A stretch of DNA of 4,786 nucleotides from a virus (lineage: Duplodnaviria; Heunggongvirae; Uroviricota; Caudoviricetes), in the IMG/VR virus record IMGVR_UViG_2565956721_000003; one strand, given 5' to 3'. Below the pieces are notes generated by a model. The model was not told the origin of the DNA. It did no database searches and saw only the letters and a program-made list of their open reading frames with translations. Below are positions 1-4,786 of the stretch, piece by piece. Each line of letters starts with the position of its first letter. Positions within the stretch are counted from its first letter, which is position 1. The translations under genes and the position numbers were made by a program.

Positions 1-555
1 AAGCAGAAAAAGCTTATTATGCTTCCATCGGAAACGATGATCTGGCAGCCTGAGTTCACAGATAAAACACTCTCCAGGAAACCCGGGGCGGTTCATTAGA
101 TGCTTTTTGCTGACTAGCATATTTACAGCATCACGAAGCGGAGTCCTGTCATCAACAGATGTTTTCTTCCGTGCATTTGCTGCCTCTCCCTTTGTCCAGT
201 AGTCATGCAGCACAGTAAAGCATTCTTCCTGGTACTGAATCAGTTTATCGCGGATGTCAGCACGAACTTTCTCAGGGTTGATGCTGAACAGCCATCCATT
301 TAACTTCTTCAAAGGAAGGCAGAGTAGCTTACGAAGCTTACCATCAGCGGCAACCATGTTCATATGAACACAGTTGAATTTGCTAATCTGCTTCATGAGT
401 TTTGTTTGCTGCGTTGACCAGCTCATTCCGAGGTTTTCAACGATTGGCTTCATCGCAACATATGCAACTCCGGCAGCCATGGCGGTGATAATTTGCTGAC
501 CGTTGAATGGCACGTAAGAGGTGTTCACTGCTTCTAAAATTGCTATACTATTCAT
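1..555 (-). CDS. ant: Phage antirepressor Ant (AntA-type N-terminal domain); 5' portion only, gene continues past the window start
   Basis: Minus-strand frame is open from the ATG at 555-553 to position 1 (185 codons, no stop), translated by hand as [60 protein letters not shown]...[20 protein letters not shown] lies about 10 nt upstream of the ATG. The N-terminus matches my recollection of P22 Ant and AntA-domain antirepressors, and the gene sits downstream of an arc-like gene as in P22 immI. Not in the ORF track because it runs off the window edge. Confidence 0.8.
541..549 (+). promoter_or_regulatory. Candidate extended -10 promoter (TGcTATACT) firing antisense to the ant start; possible Psar analogue
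   Basis: Plus strand 541-549 reads TGCTATACT, a TGn + TATAAT-like hexamer with one mismatch. No good -35 was found. A start about 7 nt downstream would fall at about 556, opposite the ant ribosome-binding site. Confidence 0.3.
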
Positions 556-637
556 GTTGGTTTTTCTCCACGGATTTACCGACAACCGAAGCCCTGACTG
601 TTCCAGCAGTTGGGGCTTCACTGTTTTGATTTCTTTG
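556..637 (+). ncRNA. Candidate small antisense RNA (sar-like) complementary to the ant ribosome-binding site
   Basis: A candidate promoter at 541-549 and a plus-strand hairpin with T-run at 588-637 bracket a roughly 70-80 nt transcript antisense to the ant Shine-Dalgarno and start codon. In phage P22 a 68-69 nt antisense sar RNA from the arc-ant intercistronic region is established. Inference from sequence signals only. Confidence 0.35.
588..637 (+). terminator. Plus-strand intrinsic terminator-like hairpin followed by a T-rich tract
   Basis: GAAGCCC (588-594) pairs with GGGCTTC (613-619), with possible inner CTG/CAG pairs, followed by ACTGTTTTGATTTCTTTG (620-637). On the minus strand the same hairpin is not followed by a T-run, so the signal is orientation-specific. 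Confidence 0.4.
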
Positions 638-787
638 CCGCATCAAGCATCACTTCTGAAAACGTGCGCTTGCCACTGAATACTCTTTCTCTTCTCAATT
701 TTTCGTTCGTGCCAAATGATTCGCCATGAACAAAATTTGGTCTTAAAATGGTAATCGCAATCTCTTTGACTACTGCATCCAAGCGAA

Positions 788-940
788 TCACACCGTTACC
801 CCCTCTCTCTTCAGGCTGTCTATCAGGCGCTTGATAACCTCTGAGTTAAACGACCTGCACTCTTCCTTTGCCCTGCTACCGATAGCATCCTTTAACGACT
901 GCGGCATCCTTACCAAAATCTTACTTATTTCTTTCTCCAT
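788..940 (-). CDS. arc: Arc-like ribbon-helix-helix repressor (50 aa)
   Basis: Within track ORF 788..976 the likely start is the internal ATG at 940-938, preceded by GGAGGG with 5-nt spacing. Product MEKEISKILVRMPQSLKDAIGSRAKEECRSFNSEVIKRLIDSLKREGVTV has the size and the 'xxRSxNSE' core of P22 Arc (NGRSVNSE in P22) and lies immediately upstream of ant. Confidence 0.8.
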   Translation of the reverse strand: MEKEISKILVRMPQSLKDAIGSRAKEECRSFNSEVIKRLIDSLKREGVTV

Positions 941-976
941 GTTACCCTCCACGCAAACAACTCTTTTCGAATACAA

Positions 977-1041
977 AAGATAGCAAAGTGAGTATATCTA
1001 GTCAAAATTTTTTTGCATACACTTTGCTATCAAATTGAATA
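977..1041. promoter_or_regulatory. Divergent arc/ant (Pant-like) and mnt (Pmnt-like) promoter region with a perfect 12-bp inverted repeat, candidate operators
   Basis: Minus strand: TTGACT (complement of 1000-1005), 17-bp spacer, TATCTT (complement of 977-982), a good sigma70 match about 35 nt upstream of arc. Plus strand: weaker TTTGCA/TTGCAT (1012-1018) and TTGAAT (1035-1040) upstream of mnt. GATAGCAAAGTG (979-990) and CACTTTGCTATC (1020-1031) are exact reverse complements 29 bp apart; one half overlaps the Pant -10 and the other lies in the Pmnt spacer. Confidence 0.5.
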
Positions 1042-1054
1042 CCAAAGGTGTTAT

Positions 1055-1303
1055 ATGGCAAAGGGTGTGTCAATTTCTCCAACTACGGTAAGAATCCCTG
1101 AATCTTTACGCGAGGCTCTTGCTGTCAGAGCATCAAAAAATGGTCGCTCTGTTAACTCCGAGATCGTCATGATTTTGCAAGCCGCGATTGATGAAGATAG
1201 GTCGCCAAAGTCAGTTGAGTCATTTGCTCAGCAAGAAGCTGATAAATTCAAAGAGGCGCTACTTGAGACGCTAAAGACCATGTATGCTAAGGATGAAAAA
1301 TAA
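1055..1303 (+). CDS. mnt: Mnt-like ribbon-helix-helix repressor (82 aa)
   Basis: Within track ORF 1013..1303 the likely start is the ATG at 1055, with AAGGTG 4-5 nt upstream. Product MAKGVSISPTTVRIPESLREALAVRASKNGRSVNSEIVMILQAAIDEDRSPKSVESFAQQEADKFKEALLETLKTMYAKDEK matches P22 Mnt in length (82 aa), in the NGRSxNSE motif and in the C-terminal TLKxxYxK segment. It is divergent from arc as in P22 immI. Confidence 0.8.
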   Translation: MAKGVSISPTTVRIPESLREALAVRASKNGRSVNSEIVMILQAAIDEDRSPKSVESFAQQEADKFKEALLETLKTMYAKDEK

Positions 1304-1837
1304 TGCTGCACACAATTCATTTCTTATGCCCTGTTAACACTGCCACTGTTGGGCAACTTCAGAACCACTGTCTCACCGCATTATCTCAAGGCGCAACTGA
1401 ATTAAATATCCATATATCAAGTCAGGGAGGGGAAACTGCTTGGCTTTACTGCGTATAACTTTCTTAAGTCACTCCCTGTTACCGTTAGAACTCACAACAT
1501 AAGCAATGTTGAATCCATAGCTAATATCGTTTTCCTGGCTGGCTCAGAACGTTTCGCAAACCCATTATCAAGATTCCTGTTACATCCTCTATTATGGTGC
1601 TTTGCCTCCCCAGCCGCCGACCATGCCAGATTGAGAGAGTACGGGAAATGCCTCGATAACGATCTTGATCGCTTCGTTGAGACGTTCAATATCGACATCG
1701 GAACCCATATTAGGTGGGCATCCCTGATAGCAGACTCGACCATTTTGGATGCTAACAAGGCTCTTGAGCATGGCATAATTAATTCCATAAAAACTGCAAG
1801 GCTGGCATCCAATCAGGCAAACTGGTGGGTTGTTTGA
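1303..1837 (+). pseudogene. ClpP-like (S14-type) serine protease gene, start overlapping the mnt stop (TAATG), interrupted by a single-nucleotide frameshift near 1440-1441
   Basis: Frame 1 (1303-1458) gives MLHTIHFLCPVNTATVGQLQNHCLTALSQGATELNIHISSQGGETAWLYCV*. Frame 2 (open 1406-1837, includes track ORF 1631..1837) gives ...GFTAYNFLKSLPVTVRTHNISNVESIANIVFLAGSERFANPLSRFLLHPLLW...DANKALEHGIINSIKT.... Joined, this aligns with remembered E. coli ClpP across [47 protein letters not shown] and APEAVEYGLVDSI, with Ser/His/Asp at the expected triad positions. Removing one T from GCTTGGC (about 1439-1443) restores ...GGETAGFTAY.... Confidence 0.6.
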
Positions 1838-1862
1838 TGGGTAAATCATGATTACTCCTTAT

Positions 1863-1887
1863 AAAAAACCCACCTGACGGTGGGTTT
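1863..1887. terminator. Bidirectional intrinsic terminator between the convergent protease gene and the toxin operon
   Basis: AAAAAA (1863-1868), CCCACC (1869-1874), loop TGAC, GGTGGG (1879-1884), TTT (1885-1887). On the minus strand the stem is followed by six T, so termination is strongest for the minus-strand operon ending at 1886; on the plus strand only three T follow. Confidence 0.6.
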
Positions 1888-2335
1888 AGTCAAACATAGT
1901 GTTTCTAAAGTCTCTCGCATACCCTGCTAACACTCTCATTCTATTATGATTGTTAGCAGACATGTGAGCTACAGGATGAAAAAGAGCAATCAATGAATAC
2001 CTGTTCTCATCAAAAAGATTTTGTGCATAAACGAGAGCGGTATTGGATGTTTTATGCCACTGCAACTTTTGCGGTGTGCTGATATCTGTGCCATTTTTTA
2101 TTGGCTCAAATTTATTTTCACCAATTGCTAAATGAAGGTGCATAAGGCCTGCATCTTCAATATCAGGAGGTCGATGATAAGAGGTGTCTCTGCCAAAATA
2201 GCTGGGCAACGTTCCCGTAGACTTGTAGATGATAAAATCATCTACAAGTGTTTGTTTTAAATCAGGAAACTCAACAAAAACCGGGGAGAAAAAATAGTCA
2301 AAACTATCCTGATTATATTCCACGGTTACTTGCAT
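1886..2335 (-). CDS. YafO-family toxin (ribosome-dependent mRNA interferase family), 149 aa
   Basis: Track ORF 1886..2335. FIIYKSTGTLPSYFGRDTSYHRP, LMHLHLAIGENKFEP and ALVYAQNLFDENRYSLIALFHPVAHMSANNHNRMRVLAGYARDFR align with E. coli YafO as I recall it (FISYKRDGVLPDIFGRDALYDDS, VAHIHLANENNPFP, HLVYCQGAFDEQAWLLIAILKPEPHKLARDNNQMHKIGKMAEAFR). The ATG at 2335 is 8 nt after the upstream gene's stop, with GAGG overlapping that stop. Confidence 0.8.
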   Translation of the reverse strand: MQVTVEYNQDSFDYFFSPVFVEFPDLKQTLVDDFIIYKSTGTLPSYFGRDTSYHRPPDIEDAGLMHLHLAIGENKFEPIKNGTDISTPQKLQWHKTSNTALVYAQNLFDENRYSLIALFHPVAHMSANNHNRMRVLAGYARDFRNTMFD

Positions 2336-2343
2336 GTTTTACC

Positions 2344-2910
2344 TCAGTGGAAGTTACCAGAGTGAAACACACGAGTCCCGTGCTCAGCAAGCGCACGCAA
2401 ACCAGCCATATCTACGGAACTATCAAAAACAACCGGAACACATGAGCGTTGTTTAATAAGACTATTCAGGTTGGTTACGGCAGATCTGGCATCAGCAACA
2501 ACGATATAGATATCTCTTGCGATCTCTTTAAAATCAGCAGAAGCTTCTTTGAATACCGATTTCATTGCCCCTTCAAGTCCTCTCAATTGATGCTCTATCA
2601 ATCGAGACTTTTCTGGTTCAATGATAGACAACACATTGTCTACATTCTCATCGGTAGCGTTTGCAAGAACACGATAAGCGTATTTCAGCATTCGAGACAA
2701 TTCTTTAATCGAAGACACCGCCTCATGAAGCTCATCATTAGCCCGTTCACTGCTGAATGAGGATTGATGGTAAGCGTGCTGAACGTTATCAGTAACAACC
2801 ACCTCACAACTGAACGCAGAAGCTTGCTGTAATAGCAAACCTATTGCGACTCCAGCTTTGGCAGCGTTCAAGCTAAACATTTCATCAATCCCATTAGTCT
2901 CATTGCTCAT
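2344..2910 (-). CDS. Hypothetical 188-aa protein encoded immediately upstream of, and coupled to, the YafO-like toxin gene; candidate atypical antitoxin or partner
   Basis: Track ORF 2344..2940; preferred start is the ATG at 2910-2908, preceded by AAGGAGG with 5-nt spacing (the track's Met at 2940 is a TTG with no RBS). Product MSNETNGIDEMFSLNAAKAGVAIGLLLQQ...GLRALAEHGTRVFHSGNFH has no recognisable RHH or HTH N-terminus and no family I can name. It is roughly twice the size of the known YafO partner YafN (97 aa). Confidence 0.7.
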   Translation of the reverse strand: MSNETNGIDEMFSLNAAKAGVAIGLLLQQASAFSCEVVVTDNVQHAYHQSSFSSERANDELHEAVSSIKELSRMLKYAYRVLANATDENVDNVLSIIEPEKSRLIEHQLRGLEGAMKSVFKEASADFKEIARDIYIVVADARSAVTNLNSLIKQRSCVPVVFDSSVDMAGLRALAEHGTRVFHSGNFH

Positions 2911-2977
2911 ACAAACCTCCTTCTTATCGGAGATTATCAATAGCTATGCATCCATTGAATACACGCTATGCGCAATA

Positions 2978-3006
2978 AGTTTACGTCACGTGATATCATT
3001 ATGCAA
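2978..3006 (-). promoter_or_regulatory. Candidate sigma70 promoter for the 188-aa/YafO-like operon, with palindromic candidate operator in the spacer
   Basis: Minus strand: TTGCAT (complement of 3001-3006), 17-bp spacer, TAAACT (complement of 2978-2983), about 60 nt upstream of the ATG at 2910. The spacer contains overlapping 8-bp palindromes TCACGTGA (2986-2993) and TGATATCA (2991-2998). Confidence 0.35.
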
Positions 3007-3085
3007 CCACCGTTCTATCACCGACTAACTTTACTCCCACTCCTATACATCATCTGGTATCCTGCGCAAAACTAAGGAGGTTGGT

Positions 3086-3436
3086 GTGAATGCTCAGTCT
3101 GTCATCATGGTTTTCCTTGGGCTGATTGTCGCAAAACTATATCCAGACTGGTGGAAAGGGGCATTAGCTACTGTCGCCATCTATTTGCTTTTATCCATCG
3201 TTAAGCGATCACTCGCTGAGACCGTAAATCAAGCAAAACGTTTCTCATTTAAGAGTTTAATAAACTATGTTACTGGGCTTATTTTTTGCCTTTCAATTCT
3301 GATCGCTTCGGCTTTTTTGCCCGTATCAATAGCTAATTTTTTTGGCGCACCATATGAGGTAGGTTATCTATTCTCTGTTTCCTGTCTTGCCATTGCTCTT
3401 CTTTACCTGTGGACGAGATCAAAGAATAAAAATTAG
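3086..3436 (+). CDS. Small integral membrane protein (116 aa, about four predicted TM helices); candidate superinfection-exclusion or abortive-infection effector
   Basis: Track ORF 3086..3436 with GTG start and AAGGAGG (3074-3080) at 5-nt spacing. Four hydrophobic stretches (SVIMVFLGLIVAKLY, GALATVAIYLLLSIV, LINYVTGLIFCLSILIASAFL, YLFSVSCLAIALLYLW) and a basic C-terminus RSKNKN. It occupies the position between mnt and gene 16 where P22 carries sieA; I could not confirm sequence similarity to SieA from memory. Confidence 0.65.
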   Translation: MNAQSVIMVFLGLIVAKLYPDWWKGALATVAIYLLLSIVKRSLAETVNQAKRFSFKSLINYVTGLIFCLSILIASAFLPVSIANFFGAPYEVGYLFSVSCLAIALLYLWTRSKNKN

Positions 3437-3453
3437 CCATCCGTGGCTGCCAG

Positions 3454-4691
3454 TTATTGAGCTTCTTTTTGTGATGCCTGTGCGACTCTGGTGAGCGATT
3501 GTGTGACCGTACTGATCGCTCTGTCATATGCTGTGCTACCTTTTGGCGTATTTGCCAGACGTAACAAGGCATTTCGTATAACAGGGCTTTCGTATGCCTT
3601 CGCAGCTCCTCCTACGACACCAGCAGCAGGAACAACAAACGCAGCCGTTTTTAGCATCCCCGCTAATACTGCTGCGTTTATGATGCCACCACCAACTAAC
3701 AATCCATAAAGCTGCTGACCATTTAAGTTTTGAACGTTCGCTTTTGCCGCGTGTCTTGTATCGTTGAGGTATTTAATAACGCCGTCCAGTTCCTTTCCAT
3801 GTACGCCTTTAAAGAAAGTTGCTGATTGCTTCCTGTTCCGGTGTAACGCATTAATAAACTTTTCAACACTAATATTTCCAGACGGATCAGTCGCCTTATC
3901 TACAGCATTCTGAACTATGGCTGCTCGTGCGTTTTGCCTACCATTGTCATCCAGAAGCCTGTAAAGCTGAGAACGTTCTGATGGGTTTTGGCTAAAAACG
4001 AGTTTTGTTACATCCTCAGGTGTAGCCTTGCCGCTGGCTATTGCCTTTTGAACGCGCGTTCTTCCCATCATGTCATTGAATCTAGCCCATGAGCGATCAA
4101 CCCTAGACATATTGGCAGCTTCTTCTGAGCCTAGTTTTTGGGATACTGCTTTTTTCATATCCGCTGTATATGCCTTGTAGACAATATCGCTGGCTTTCTG
4201 GAGCGTGTCTTTATCAACAGTCTCGTTTGAATTCATGAACCGCTTTCGAAGGTCAGTTCTGTTTTCTCTCGCCAGACGCAGGTCATTGGGTCCGCTGGTG
4301 ATATCGTCTTTAAATTGCTGCAAGACTTTTACCGCGGCTCTATCCTGAGATTTGCCCGGGCGGCTTAACACGGCAATCTGATTGTCGATAGCTTTTACCG
4401 TGTTTGAGAGATCGACAGGGGTATCCCCCATAGCGTCAATTATGCGGTTATATCGCTTTCCTGCTGCCTCAATGAATTTTTGTTGCCCTTTAGTCGCAGA
4501 TTCATAAAGCTGTTTATCAGAAATGCCACCCAGACCATCGCTAAATGTTCTGACTAAATTTTCTCGTGCTTGTTGTTGATTCAGCCGATTCTTACCGGTT
4601 CCAAAAAAAGGAACTCTTTCGCCTAATGTCTGAGCCTGACTCTGCATAAAGGTTTTATCTTTCAGCGTGTCACTGGTCATTAACGGCAGGT
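3454..4691 (-). CDS. Phage late protein, probable DNA ejection/injection protein (P22 gp16-like by position), 3' portion; 5' end interrupted by an IS element
   Basis: Track ORF 3454..4680 (408 aa). The frame stays open upstream of the ATG at 4680 through the IS boundary and stops only at 4717-4719 inside IS sequence, so the native N-terminus is missing. A glycine-rich hydrophobic segment (GLLVGGGIINAAVLAGMLKTAAFVVPAAGVVGGAAKA) sits near the C-terminus. Assignment to gp16 rests on synteny with P22 (gene 16 lies next to the sieA/mnt side of immI) and on the size deficit (about 410 of roughly 600 aa). Confidence 0.5.
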
Positions 4692-4786
4692 TGAACCGCC
4701 CCGGGAATCCTGGAGACTAAACTTCCTGAGAAAGAGGTAAACAGGATGACTAAAAATACTCGTTTTTCCCCCGAAGTCCGTCAACG
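4692..4786 (+). mobile_element. IS3-family insertion sequence (IS629/IS1203-like), left terminal inverted repeat and start of orfA; continues beyond window
   Basis: TGAACCGCCCCGGGAATCCTGGAGACTAAAC... from 4692 matches the IS3-family left end as I recall it (TGA terminus), followed by AGAGG and the ATG at 4746. Confidence 0.65.
4746..4786 (+). CDS. IS3-family transposase OrfA, N-terminal 13 codons only
   Basis: Translation MTKNTRFSPEVRQ(R) matches the OrfA N-terminus of IS629/IS1203-type elements from memory. AGAGG lies upstream of the ATG. Confidence 0.65.
   Translation, partial: MTKNTRFSPEVRQ

Follow-up and report, generated by a model that had tools for sequence, protein, structure and literature searches.

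Does the interval between mnt and gene 16 of this P22-like prophage hold one cassette of cooperating defence genes, as a first-pass annotation had proposed, or an assortment of separate cargo? The whole stretch of DNA analysed (the window) is 4,786 nt long. The interval, at 1303–3436, lies between mnt (1055–1303, plus strand) and the C-terminal part of an ejection gene of the P22 gp16 type (3454–4692, minus strand), and contains a ClpP-like open reading frame, a minus-strand bicistron of orf188 and a YafO-family toxin gene, and a plus-strand gene for a membrane protein. The earlier view that these are three transcription units with no tie to virion assembly was borne out by their Pfam and PHROG family matches. 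The interval is the known hypervariable "ant moron" of a P22-like prophage in K1-type E. coli. That this moron region is built from three independent modules is very probable. The fuller reading, in which three morons, each mobile on its own and each acting separately, make up the mosaic of variable cargo and carry the functions assigned below, is the one towards which we lean; the functional assignments of the three units, taken by themselves, are tentative.

The host prophage is of the CUS-3/APEC-1 type, P22-like and integrated at argW in K1/ST95-type E. coli. Prophages of strains S88 and APEC O1 match the window at 99.9% identity and include intS, a neuO-type acyltransferase gene and a tailspike gene, the FY26 copy of which is annotated as an endosialidase. 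The near-identical APEC O1 prophage was already diagrammed in 2008 (Villafane et al., PMC2629481), in a study that found the ant moron in rapid flux, with ten types in sixteen genomes, APEC-1 among them.

The window contains all of the immI core genes sar, arc, mnt and ant. The truncated ant (94–555, minus strand) retains the N-terminal 154 codons of the antirepressor, is collinear with S88 ant (WP_001350929, 300 codons) and shares ~80% DNA identity with P22 ant. The sar antisense RNA of the immI region (556–622, plus strand) matched Rfam RF00262 with 83.9 bits (gathering score 43, E 2.9e-17). Between arc and ant, the open reading frame list contains orf57 (618–791, minus strand; phrog_17642, E 1.3e-43, function unknown), which is annotated as hypothetical in S88 and is missing from P22 and epsilon34. 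The ribbon-helix-helix repressor gene arc (788–940, minus strand) and the mnt-type ribbon-helix-helix maintenance repressor gene both matched Pfam PF03869 (Arc; E 5.1e-12 and 9.5e-11, respectively). Position and orientation of mnt are as in P22 and epsilon34, and it is the first gene of its operon, followed by the ClpP-like gene. In P22, mnt is expressed in lysogens. On the far side of the interval, the truncated gene 16 keeps the last 412 of its 670 codons together with the stop, is collinear with S88 WP_000868966 and belongs to the P22 gp16 family (phrog_770, DNA transfer protein, E 1.6e-124).

The architecture is that of the ant moron of P22, epsilon34, APEC-1 and CUS-3 (PMC2629481): a position flanked by gene 16 and the tailspike gene, an mnt/arc/sar/ant core, a sieA-slot gene that converges on gene 16, and variable content unrelated to virion assembly. 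By the Hendrix/Juhala definition of a moron, as used in PMC2629481, the interval holds genes outside morphogenesis and lysis at a variable junction, with a composition (41.8% GC) unlike that of the neighbouring phage genes of the late region (50.0%). The order in P22 is sieA-orf59a-mnt-arc-ant, and the epsilon34 counterpart comprises genes 14–18 (PMC2629481). What differs is the cargo: sieA and orf59a in P22, genes 14 and 15 in epsilon34, and in the window a ClpP-like gene joined to the mnt operon, the YafO-family toxin with its partner, a membrane protein unrelated to these and the extra orf57. Between gene 16 and mnt, P22, epsilon34, phiv205-1 and the IMG/VR locus L017 each carry different genes.

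Alignment to P22-like prophages, which had been recommended for defining the boundaries, located two of them. The first is a GC-rich hairpin (1866–1887) between the convergent ClpP-like and yafO genes, with a folding energy of -14.9 kcal/mol on the minus strand and -14.5 kcal/mol on the plus strand (z ~ -4). It is both the intrinsic terminator of the yafO operon, with a U-run after it on the minus strand, and a module breakpoint: phiv205-1 shares 90–1887 and diverges exactly at the hairpin end, 1887, and the homology of EC.P3 and E212 ends there too. The second is a 40-bp junction (3049–3090), common to many P22-like phages with different genes behind it and 95–100% identical in Emek, phiv205-1, JEP4 and epsilon34. 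The junction contains the ribosome-binding site and start of the sieA-slot gene and belongs to the divergent intergenic control region (2911–3085), which is ~80% conserved in L017, where the downstream gene differs. The breakpoint, the shared junction and the occurrence of the units alone in unrelated phage types substantiate the proposal that the interval is horizontally acquired cargo.

The modules are also distributed independently. Of 5,426 complete E. coli genomes, 128 have the ClpP-like gene, 51 the YafO pair and ~280 the membrane gene. As a stand-alone moron, the ClpP-like gene occurs in prophages of Klebsiella, Proteus and Chromobacterium, on the strand opposite to the flanking phage operons; in PhiR12_1 it accompanies mnt/arc/ant, and the group is placed between the lambda tail genes L and K. 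The YafO pair is found by itself at sites that include the HK639 tail cluster, and accompanies mnt/arc/ant in a siphovirus-type contig. These counts bear directly on the idea that the three units cooperate in one defence or exclusion cassette, for example through a protease that processes or activates the toxin system or the membrane protein. Such a cassette would account for the adjacency of the units, for at least 43 E. coli records that carry the whole window in this arrangement at 99.9% identity, and for L017, in which the YafO pair still has a remnant of the ClpP-like gene behind it. It is nevertheless very improbable, given that the distributions are discordant and every unit is found alone in other phages. 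Moreover, phiv205-1 carries mnt and the ClpP-like gene beside different neighbours; the ClpP-like gene is frameshifted in the window and broken by IS elements in FY26 and E10, with the other genes intact; and the units lie on different strands, opposite or divergent to the late operon, with the strong terminator at 1866–1887 between them. Cooperation among the three units, as first envisaged, is thus not supported.

Base composition gave a mixed answer to the suggestion that the island is richer in AT than its surroundings. Its GC content (41.8%) is marginally below that of the left and right flanks in the window (43.3% and 45.8%, a difference of 1.5–4 points) and clearly below that of the prophage late region or virion module (50.0%) and of host genes (50.3%). 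In the prophage part of the S88 locus analysed, only 8% of equal-sized segments are as AT-rich as the island. The AT bias is not specific to the island, since the entire ant-tailspike-neuO end has it.

The first unit is a gene for a short ClpP-like serine peptidase (1303–1837, plus strand), which had been annotated as a protease gene and proved to be a pseudogene in the window. Relative to S88, whose intact allele encodes 178 aa, 2 bp are missing after position 1440, so that the frame ends at a stop at 1456–1458 and the product is 51 aa long. The deletion is private to this sequence: none of the 128 complete genomes with the ClpP-like gene has it. The ATG of the gene overlaps the mnt stop (TAATG, 1301–1305), which makes the open reading frame a member of the mnt operon. 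The intact S88 protein matched PF00574 with 44.4 bits (cut-off 20.2), and in alignments its Ser72 (VESIAN) and His95 (LLHPL) fall on catalytic residues of both ClpP and PpClpP1. The protein begins ~37 residues into E. coli ClpP, and the N-terminal axial loop, at which ClpX and ClpA dock, is absent.

The closest solved relative, over the full length, is PpClpP1 (PDB 9uxt, E 1.6e-35), an N-terminally truncated ClpP paralogue of Pseudomonas plecoglossicida. The two are similar in length (183 aa for PpClpP1, 178 aa for the window's family), both lack the N-terminal axial loop and both retain the conserved Ser and His. In the alignment, the window's family has an Asp adjoining the position of the unusual Pro of PpClpP1, and the third triad residue may therefore be canonical. 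Unlike PpClpP1, the gene studied here is prophage-borne, coupled to mnt and, in the window, inactivated. PpClpP1 does not bind ClpX; it assembles with the housekeeping ClpP into mixed tetradecamers and raises the activity of ClpXP (PMC12900304). By analogy, the intact ClpP-like peptidase would form tetradecamers and could mix with host ClpP. It would probably be made in the lysogen, because its gene is translationally coupled to mnt. The phage head maturation protease annotated in phiv205-1 (phrog_94) was considered as an identity for this gene and rejected: NCBIfam NF045542 scored 49 bits (cut-off 120), the gene belongs to the mnt operon, which is not part of the late operon and runs against it, and its homologues are single-gene morons on the strand opposite to their neighbours.

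The second unit is the minus-strand pair. The toxin gene (1886–2335) encodes 149 aa and matched Pfam PF13957, YafO_toxin, over profile positions 3–101 of 101 (E 3.4e-22, 78.9 bits, cut-off 25), as well as phrog_1651 (E 1e-47). The NCBIfam equivalog model for E. coli YafO, PRK09885, gave 79 bits, under its cut-off of 153. Work by Zhang et al. (2009) describes YafO as a ribosome-dependent mRNA interferase of the E. coli type II system yafNO, and the window's toxin may have the same activity. The two loci share a PF13957 toxin and a bicistron in which the partner gene leads with a tight gap (8 nt here). They differ in setting, a phage moron here and the dinB operon for yafNO; in an N-terminal extension of ~35 aa on the window's toxin; and in the partner, which for E. 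coli is YafN, a Phd/YefM-type protein of ~97 aa, and in the window is a 188-aa protein with a predicted helical bundle and a signal-like N-terminus.

That partner, orf188 (2344–2910, minus strand; phrog_8416), is the most interesting part of the interval: a conserved companion of phage-type YafO toxins and the presumed antitoxin or immunity protein. Its family precedes a phage-type YafO gene by 8–16 nt in all 12 other contexts with a readable downstream gene (6 from phage records, the other 6 from metagenome, genome or IMG/VR lineages). The pairing is strict, and both members have diverged, with 38% identity to HK639 for orf188 and 59% for the toxin. The family is tiny and unannotated (24 cluster representatives in 1.84 billion), and orf188 itself had zero matches in Pfam, NCBIfam or PDB, by sequence or by fold. 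Within Pfam and NCBIfam it has no recognisable DNA-binding or YafN/Phd-like domain. A YafN-like antitoxin was rejected as its identity on the same lack of Pfam, NCBIfam and PDB matches and on the predicted helical-bundle fold. The AlphaFold2 model (mean pLDDT 70) has a helix at the N-terminus, followed by a disordered linker and then a separate, confidently modelled helical bundle; the C-terminal tail is conserved in the family. On the preferred reading, orf188 would be the cognate neutraliser of the toxin, probably acting through this tail, and the pair would most likely be a prophage abortive-infection or addiction module.

The N-terminus of orf188 raises a different account, in which the protein is exported or envelope-associated rather than an antitoxin, and the pair is non-classical (for example, a cytoplasmic RNase linked to a sensor in the envelope) or the "toxin" has another role. 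Of the 32 family members examined, nearly all have a hydrophobic segment at the N-terminus, 24 have a positively charged n-region and most have an AxA-like motif, as called by a home-made heuristic and not by SignalP. A cytoplasmic antitoxin role fits poorly with such a signal-peptide-like N-terminus in most members, and the domain layout of the model and the size of orf188, twice that of YafN and lacking a DNA-binding domain, point the same way. This account is nonetheless unlikely: in the subgroup to which the window's protein belongs, the n-region is net negative and the conserved core, GLL(L/M)QQ, is unusual for signal peptides, while the order of the genes, their close spacing and their strict co-occurrence classically mark a type II toxin–antitoxin system.

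The third unit encodes a small, predicted inner-membrane protein (3086–3436, plus strand; 116 aa from the GTG, 109 aa from an ATG at 3107). It is convergent with gene 16 and occupies the site of P22 sieA, which the first-pass annotation had placed at this junction; the two genes also have the same orientation. Like sieA, it lies between the homologues of genes 16 and 9 in a P22-like prophage. The protein has four hydrophobic segments (Kyte-Doolittle), a K/R-rich loop at residues 40–58 and a K/R-rich C-terminus; its AlphaFold2 model (pLDDT 57) is too weak for use, and its family is narrow and enterobacterial. SieA proteins of types A–C are integral inner-membrane proteins with 3–4 transmembrane helices and a conserved cytoplasmic motif, FxRYPxEAxxFNK (Leavitt et al., 2024, PMC10883804). 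SieA is small and multi-pass, as the window's protein is predicted to be, both genes adjoin gene 16, and both are widespread in E. coli P22-like prophages; SieA is longer, at 162–164 aa. Homology to SieA was rejected (BLASTP E 0.29, hhalign probability 0.7%), the motif of P22 SieA is absent from the window's membrane protein, and that protein has no similarity to epsilon34 gp14, a homologue of HK620 hkcB. Judged by sequence, it is analogous to SieA in position but not homologous to it. It may serve an inner-membrane function in the lysogen, most likely a superinfection exclusion analogous to that of SieA. For this gene and the toxin pair, expression in the lysogen is assumed, since a promoter scan found no promoter-like site in 2911–3085 and its count over the scanned stretch was not above chance.

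We infer all biochemical activities and any protective phenotype, and the cargo may plausibly protect the lysogen. Speaking for it are the translational coupling of the ClpP-like gene to mnt and, where mnt is lacking, its placement on the strand opposite to the flanking operons, together with the sieA-slot position of the membrane gene and the presence of a toxin in the pair. Against it, the defence-system search that had been advised returned nothing: no PADLOC-DB v2.0.0 model matched an island protein at E <= 0.001. The sole match below 0.01, of orf188 to ZorA (E 0.0039, 14 bits), was a spurious tail match and was discarded. Toxin–antitoxin pairs on mobile elements classically give post-segregational killing, which is one ground for a reading in which the cargo serves prophage maintenance or host physiology and not anti-phage defence: the YafO pair would be an addiction module by which the prophage, or the ant moron, is kept stable, the proteolysis carried out by host Clp would be retuned by the ClpP-like subunit, and the membrane protein would have a role unrelated to phage. 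The mixing of PpClpP1 with housekeeping ClpP and its boost to ClpXP suit this reading, as do the recurrence of the YafO pair beside mnt/arc/ant in an unrelated phage type and a host lineage of extraintestinal pathogens whose prophage already has the virulence-linked neuO. It is somewhat unlikely, because a place in the sieA slot and a moron architecture typify exclusion and defence functions (PMC10883804).

In the window, the genes named earlier as the flanks of the island, ant and the ejection gene, are not whole; both are cut by IS3-family ends. The left one (1–93, plus strand), a 3′ end with the end of the transposase open reading frame and the terminal inverted repeat, truncates ant and is 100% identical to annotated FY26 copies. 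The right one (4692–4786, plus strand) is the 5′ end of a second copy, oriented like the first and 100% identical to the left end of the FY26 element. Thousands of E. coli records match just these IS ends. A pattern scan also found a terminator-like hairpin 3′ of gene 16 (3435–3448, minus strand), which is weak evidence, as its folding energy is only -5.7 kcal/mol (z -1.15).

With insertions in ant and gene 16 and a frameshifted ClpP-like gene, the prophage of this strain is defective, and present-day selection on its cargo is therefore uncertain. The loss of an essential ejection gene, the private frameshift and the recurrence of IS insertions in the same region of other strains could mean that the island is decaying, functionless DNA of a dead prophage. 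This is quite improbable, given that the open reading frames of the YafO pair and the membrane gene are intact and that 1860–3460 is 100% identical in S88 and six further genomes among the matches listed; the membrane gene persists even in heavily decayed prophage remnants.

Between positions 90 and 4692 the window was 99.9% identical to a P22-like (Lederbergvirus-type) prophage of E. coli S88, APEC O1 and many related strains. In its S88-type form this prophage is integrated beside tRNA-Arg and intS, and its gene content includes a neuO-type acyltransferase and a tailspike, the latter annotated as an endosialidase in the FY26 copy. From the neuO-type and tailspike genes and a published comparison (PMC2629481), we infer a K1 prophage of the CUS-3/APEC-1 kind. 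Read along the minus strand, the direction of the late operon, the gene order was gene 16′ (assigned by phrog_770), a membrane protein gene (3086-3436, opposite strand), orf188 (2344-2910), the yafO-like gene (1886-2335), the ClpP-like gene and mnt (both opposite strand), and then arc, orf57, sar (antisense; 556-622, Rfam sar, 83.9 bits) and ant′, with arc and mnt identified by Pfam Arc matches. P22 and epsilon34 share this skeleton, the slot convergent with gene 16 being occupied by sieA in P22 and by gene 14 in epsilon34. Unlike the window, neither carries a gene at the position of a 57-codon ORF (618-791, minus strand; phrog_17642, function unknown), which separates arc from the sar/ant leader, with an overlap at the arc stop codon.

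The first-pass annotation had described the interval between mnt and gene 16 (1303-3436, the island) as AT-rich, horizontally acquired cargo that protects the lysogen. As an observation this was largely right and as an interpretation partly so, with three corrections to the former: one unit is a pseudogene, the flanking genes are truncated by IS ends, and the contrast in composition is modest. Horizontally exchanged, non-virion cargo at this junction was borne out and is already published: the interval between genes 16 and 9 was named the 'ant moron' by Villafane, Casjens and colleagues, who sorted sixteen genomes into ten types, judged the region to be changing rapidly and included diagrams of it for APEC-1 and CUS-3 (PMC2629481), and sieA is present in only 22 of 66 P22-like phages (Leavitt et al., PMC10883804). 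The island adds one more example, for which a diagram is already published, to a known class of phage accessory regions; as the cargo hot spot of P22-like phages is familiar, it is itself no surprise. The only element beyond the routine is an unannotated partner family of phage-type YafO toxins with an odd N-terminus. Horizontal acquisition as lysogen cargo is supported, and putative protection of the lysogen by that cargo is plausible. Scanning all island proteins with PADLOC HMMs for known defence systems gave no usable match.

GC content was 41.8% for the island, clearly below the 50.0% of the late region of the S88 prophage (adjacent host genes, 50.3%) but only slightly below the left (43.3%) and right (45.8%) flanks within the window; the yafO-like, membrane protein and ClpP-like genes had values of 37.8%, 39.9% and 44.9%, respectively. 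Windows of the same size from the prophage part of the fetched S88 locus were as AT-rich in only 8% of cases. Since ant, the tailspike gene and the neuO-like gene were likewise low (38-44%), the AT bias marks the whole accessory end and not the island in particular.

Alignment with P22-like relatives, proposed earlier as a way of defining the insertion boundaries, yielded two: a breakpoint at a hairpin (1866-1887) and a common 40-bp stretch (3049-3090). The related phage phiv205-1 was 98.8% identical across 90-1887 and carried other genes beyond this point, which coincides with the GC-rich hairpin (z about -4; dG -14.9 kcal/mol for the minus strand and -14.5 kcal/mol for the plus strand). The hairpin extends into the yafO stop codon, and a U-run follows it on the minus strand. 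The 40-bp stretch, which spans the sieA-slot gene's RBS and start codon, was 95-100% identical in many P22-like phages (Emek, JEP4, phiv205-1, epsilon34) with differing genes downstream of it, and from the alignments looks like a conserved recombination joint or a common expression signal. The whole divergent intergenic region was ~80% conserved in an IMG/VR locus (L017) whose slot holds another gene. This locus belongs to a related, P22-like element (UViG_2880350357_000005) in which the sieA-slot gene (5501-5800, minus strand) is small and different, with a signal-peptide-like N-terminus, VKRWVIGAFCFLISSLAQSQ..., and only a fragment of the ClpP-like gene is left, downstream of yafO. A promoter consensus scan gave no promoter-like site within the intergenic region 2911-3085, the count over the scanned stretch being not above chance, and an inverted-repeat search of 2900-3100 found no operator.

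The 149-aa toxin was assigned to the YafO family by Pfam (78.9 bits, cut-off 25) but fell short of the cut-off for equivalogs of E. coli YafO (79 against 153). The product of orf188, the 188-codon gene directly upstream, had no relative in Pfam, NCBIfam, PADLOC or PDB. When 1.84 billion cluster representatives were searched exhaustively with a profile, only 24 relatives emerged, nine of them below 1e-10; one-genome-per-species contigs contained no confirmed match, and an IMG/VR scan gave mostly identical copies and one informative locus, L017. In the AF2 model of orf188 (mean pLDDT 70), an N-terminal helix leads through a disordered linker to a helical bundle modelled with confidence (residues 54-155); the C-terminal tail, with the conserved sequence FDSSVDMxGLRxLAEHGTxVFHSGNFH, is floppy in the model. 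Conservation of this tail, which ends in HSGNFH, is strong. A fold search of the PDB with this model gave only generic helical-bundle noise (best E 0.06), and PDB sequence and profile searches with the YafO-like and orf188 proteins gave chance matches or none.

In every context with a readable downstream gene, the orf188-family gene was immediately followed by a PF13957 gene. This arrangement was seen in HK639 (genes 17 and 18, with identities to the window proteins of 38% for the partner and 59% for the toxin), in four divergent metagenome/genome lineages and in L017. Partners were also detected by family HMM (E 2e-40 to 6e-13) in five further phage records, those opened with a YafO-like match: PhiR40_1, vB_PaeS-D14L, YMC11/02/R656, phage-plasmid pJN2-26 and CMS-2020a. 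Published descriptions of phage and tailocin YafO-like genes name no partner and call the toxins antitoxin-less or 'orphans'; the P. aeruginosa prophage toxins of vB_PaeS-D14L and YMC11/02/R656 were published as lone toxins. Directly upstream of the toxin an orf188-family gene was found in both the Pseudomonas phage vB_PaeS-D14L (L040 989-1941; HMM E 8e-38) and YMC11/02/R656 (L036 950-1941; HMM E 2e-20). The 2025 PhiR40_1 record labels the partner 'YafM antitoxin', a name for which literature support was not found and which was not adopted.

As a rule the pair occurs as a moron within clusters of tail or ejection genes. In one siphovirus-type tail cluster (L022 3001-5704; ENA ERZ28588678 scaffold_118), an orf190/YafO pair is convergent with an mnt-like gene followed by arc and ant, matching the window in relative order and orientation (46-56% protein identity), the whole being inserted before the tape-measure gene. 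On the best reading, orf188 and the yafO-like gene are a type II-like pair of neutraliser and toxin that serves either abortive infection or prophage addiction, offering a compact two-gene module for the study of either; recognition of the conserved partner family would correct the phage records examined and rare related genes.

N-termini were inspected with a home-made heuristic, not a validated predictor, which scored most orf188-family members as signal-peptide-like with a short hydrophobic core; the n-region was positively charged in 24 of 32 members, and the same heuristic marked AxA-like motifs such as PAAMA↓QEF. The orf188 protein of the window reads AGVAIGLLLQQASA↓FSCE, yet its n-region is net negative. 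An exported protein could not serve as a classical cytoplasmic antitoxin. It is conceivable, and in our estimate rather improbable, that phage-type YafO and a dedicated partner of ~180 aa form a two-component, envelope-coupled abortive-infection module of their own. A signal-like N-terminus would direct the partner to export or to the membrane; the partner might, for example, sense envelope or export disturbance during DNA injection and then release a cytoplasmic ribosome-dependent RNase. Such a module would account for the description of phage-type YafO toxins as 'orphans' in prophages and tailocins and for the repeated location of the pair among tail or ejection genes and beside the mnt/arc/ant cassette.

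The protease unit named in the first-pass annotation is present as a ClpP-like gene but is not intact. Relative to S88 it carries a 2-bp deletion after 1440 (window 1438-1442: GCTGCTGG to GCTTGG), and the resulting frameshift leaves a 51-aa product. All 128 complete E. coli genomes with the gene have the undeleted form; the deletion, private to the window, may be genuine or may stem from a sequencing error. The intact allele (178 aa) matched Pfam CLP_protease at 44.4 bits, and its best solved relative was PDB 9UXT (E 1.6e-35), PpClpP1 of Pseudomonas plecoglossicida, a 183-aa ClpP without the N-terminal axial loop that assembles into tetradecamers, is a weak peptidase, fails to bind ClpX and yields mixed complexes of higher activity with the housekeeping ClpP (PMC12900304). 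In the alignment the catalytic Ser (VESIAN) and His (LLHPL) are retained and an Asp adjoins the position of the unusual Pro of PpClpP1. The 'head maturation protease' label given to the gene in phiv205-1 was rejected on its NF045542 score (49, cut-off 120) and gene context.

Homologues of about 180 aa were common in Enterobacterales, as single opposite-strand genes at differing prophage positions. Among the prophages compared (loci L026-L034), which belong to unrelated temperate phages, the opposite-strand gene separates lysis from terminase genes in Klebsiella and N from erf in Proteus; in Chromobacterium its neighbours are tail genes on one side and lysis genes on the other. In the lambda-like Escherichia phage PhiR12_1 (PV340549; L044 2106-4118), an ant-arc-mnt-ClpP-like cassette sits between tail genes L and K, its ClpP-like part and the last 80 nt of mnt being 97.6% identical to the window. 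Because homologues sit singly at different places in different prophages, the ClpP-like gene is, judged by gene context, a stand-alone moron. Short ClpP-like genes without the axial loop are widespread as single-gene prophage morons, which gives the recently solved PpClpP1-type proteins a mobile-element context; PpClpP1 itself may be of such origin. The ClpP-like ATG overlaps the mnt stop codon in the window, and in P22 mnt is expressed in lysogens; the intact allele is therefore predicted to be expressed in lysogens.

The membrane protein is 116 aa from a GTG located 5 nt after AAGGAGG, or 109 aa from the RefSeq start (ATG at 3107), with four hydrophobic segments and K/R-rich stretches at 40-58 and the C-terminus; its family is narrow and enterobacterial, and its AF2 model (pLDDT 57) was too poor for a fold search. 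It resembles a sieA-slot gene in position but is not a member of the SieA family: BLASTP and hhalign gave no similarity to P22 SieA, and the FxRYPxEAxxFNK motif is absent. Relationship to epsilon34 gp14 (HK620 hkcB homologue) was rejected because the same two methods gave no similarity. From position only, putative superinfection exclusion is a reasonable guess. The gene is retained in decayed prophages, beside gene 16 remnants or alone, and this persistence hints at selection in the host. In E. coli O111:NM 08-4377 (L043 3984-4373), a 130-aa version lies beside ykgL in a remnant without gene 16, alongside PerC-family regulator genes; many lineages contain remnants like it.

Among 5,426 complete E. 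coli genomes, the membrane protein gene was the most widespread of the three units (about 280), followed by the ClpP-like module (128, with an mnt-type gene adjacent in every record listed) and the YafO pair (51); the whole window was present in 43 records. These discordant distributions, with one unit dead beside intact others, argue against an obligate three-part system, and the suggested cooperation of the three units was not upheld. In ST95/K1 E. coli the cargo shares a prophage with the virulence-linked neuO, and any effect on phage resistance would be relevant to phage therapy.

Both ends of the window (1-~93 and ~4692-4786) are ends of IS3-family elements in the same orientation, with sequences identical to those annotated in FY26. 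Because they truncate ant after 154 codons and gene 16 to its C-terminal 412 of 670 codons, either the prophage is defective or the window is an assembly contig with IS repeats at its ends. Unless the window is such a contig, the 4.6-kb immI and cargo segment is bracketed by IS ends like a composite transposon; this pair of insertion sites was found in no complete E. coli genome of the collection. Thousands of E. coli records match the window because of these IS ends. Matches to Stx-converting phages were rejected as relatives of the island and are taken to reflect the IS ends, as they were absent when 1860-3460 alone was searched. Other strains, too, repeatedly have IS insertions in this region, FY26 and E10 between mnt and the ClpP-like gene and phiv205-1 within the tailspike gene.
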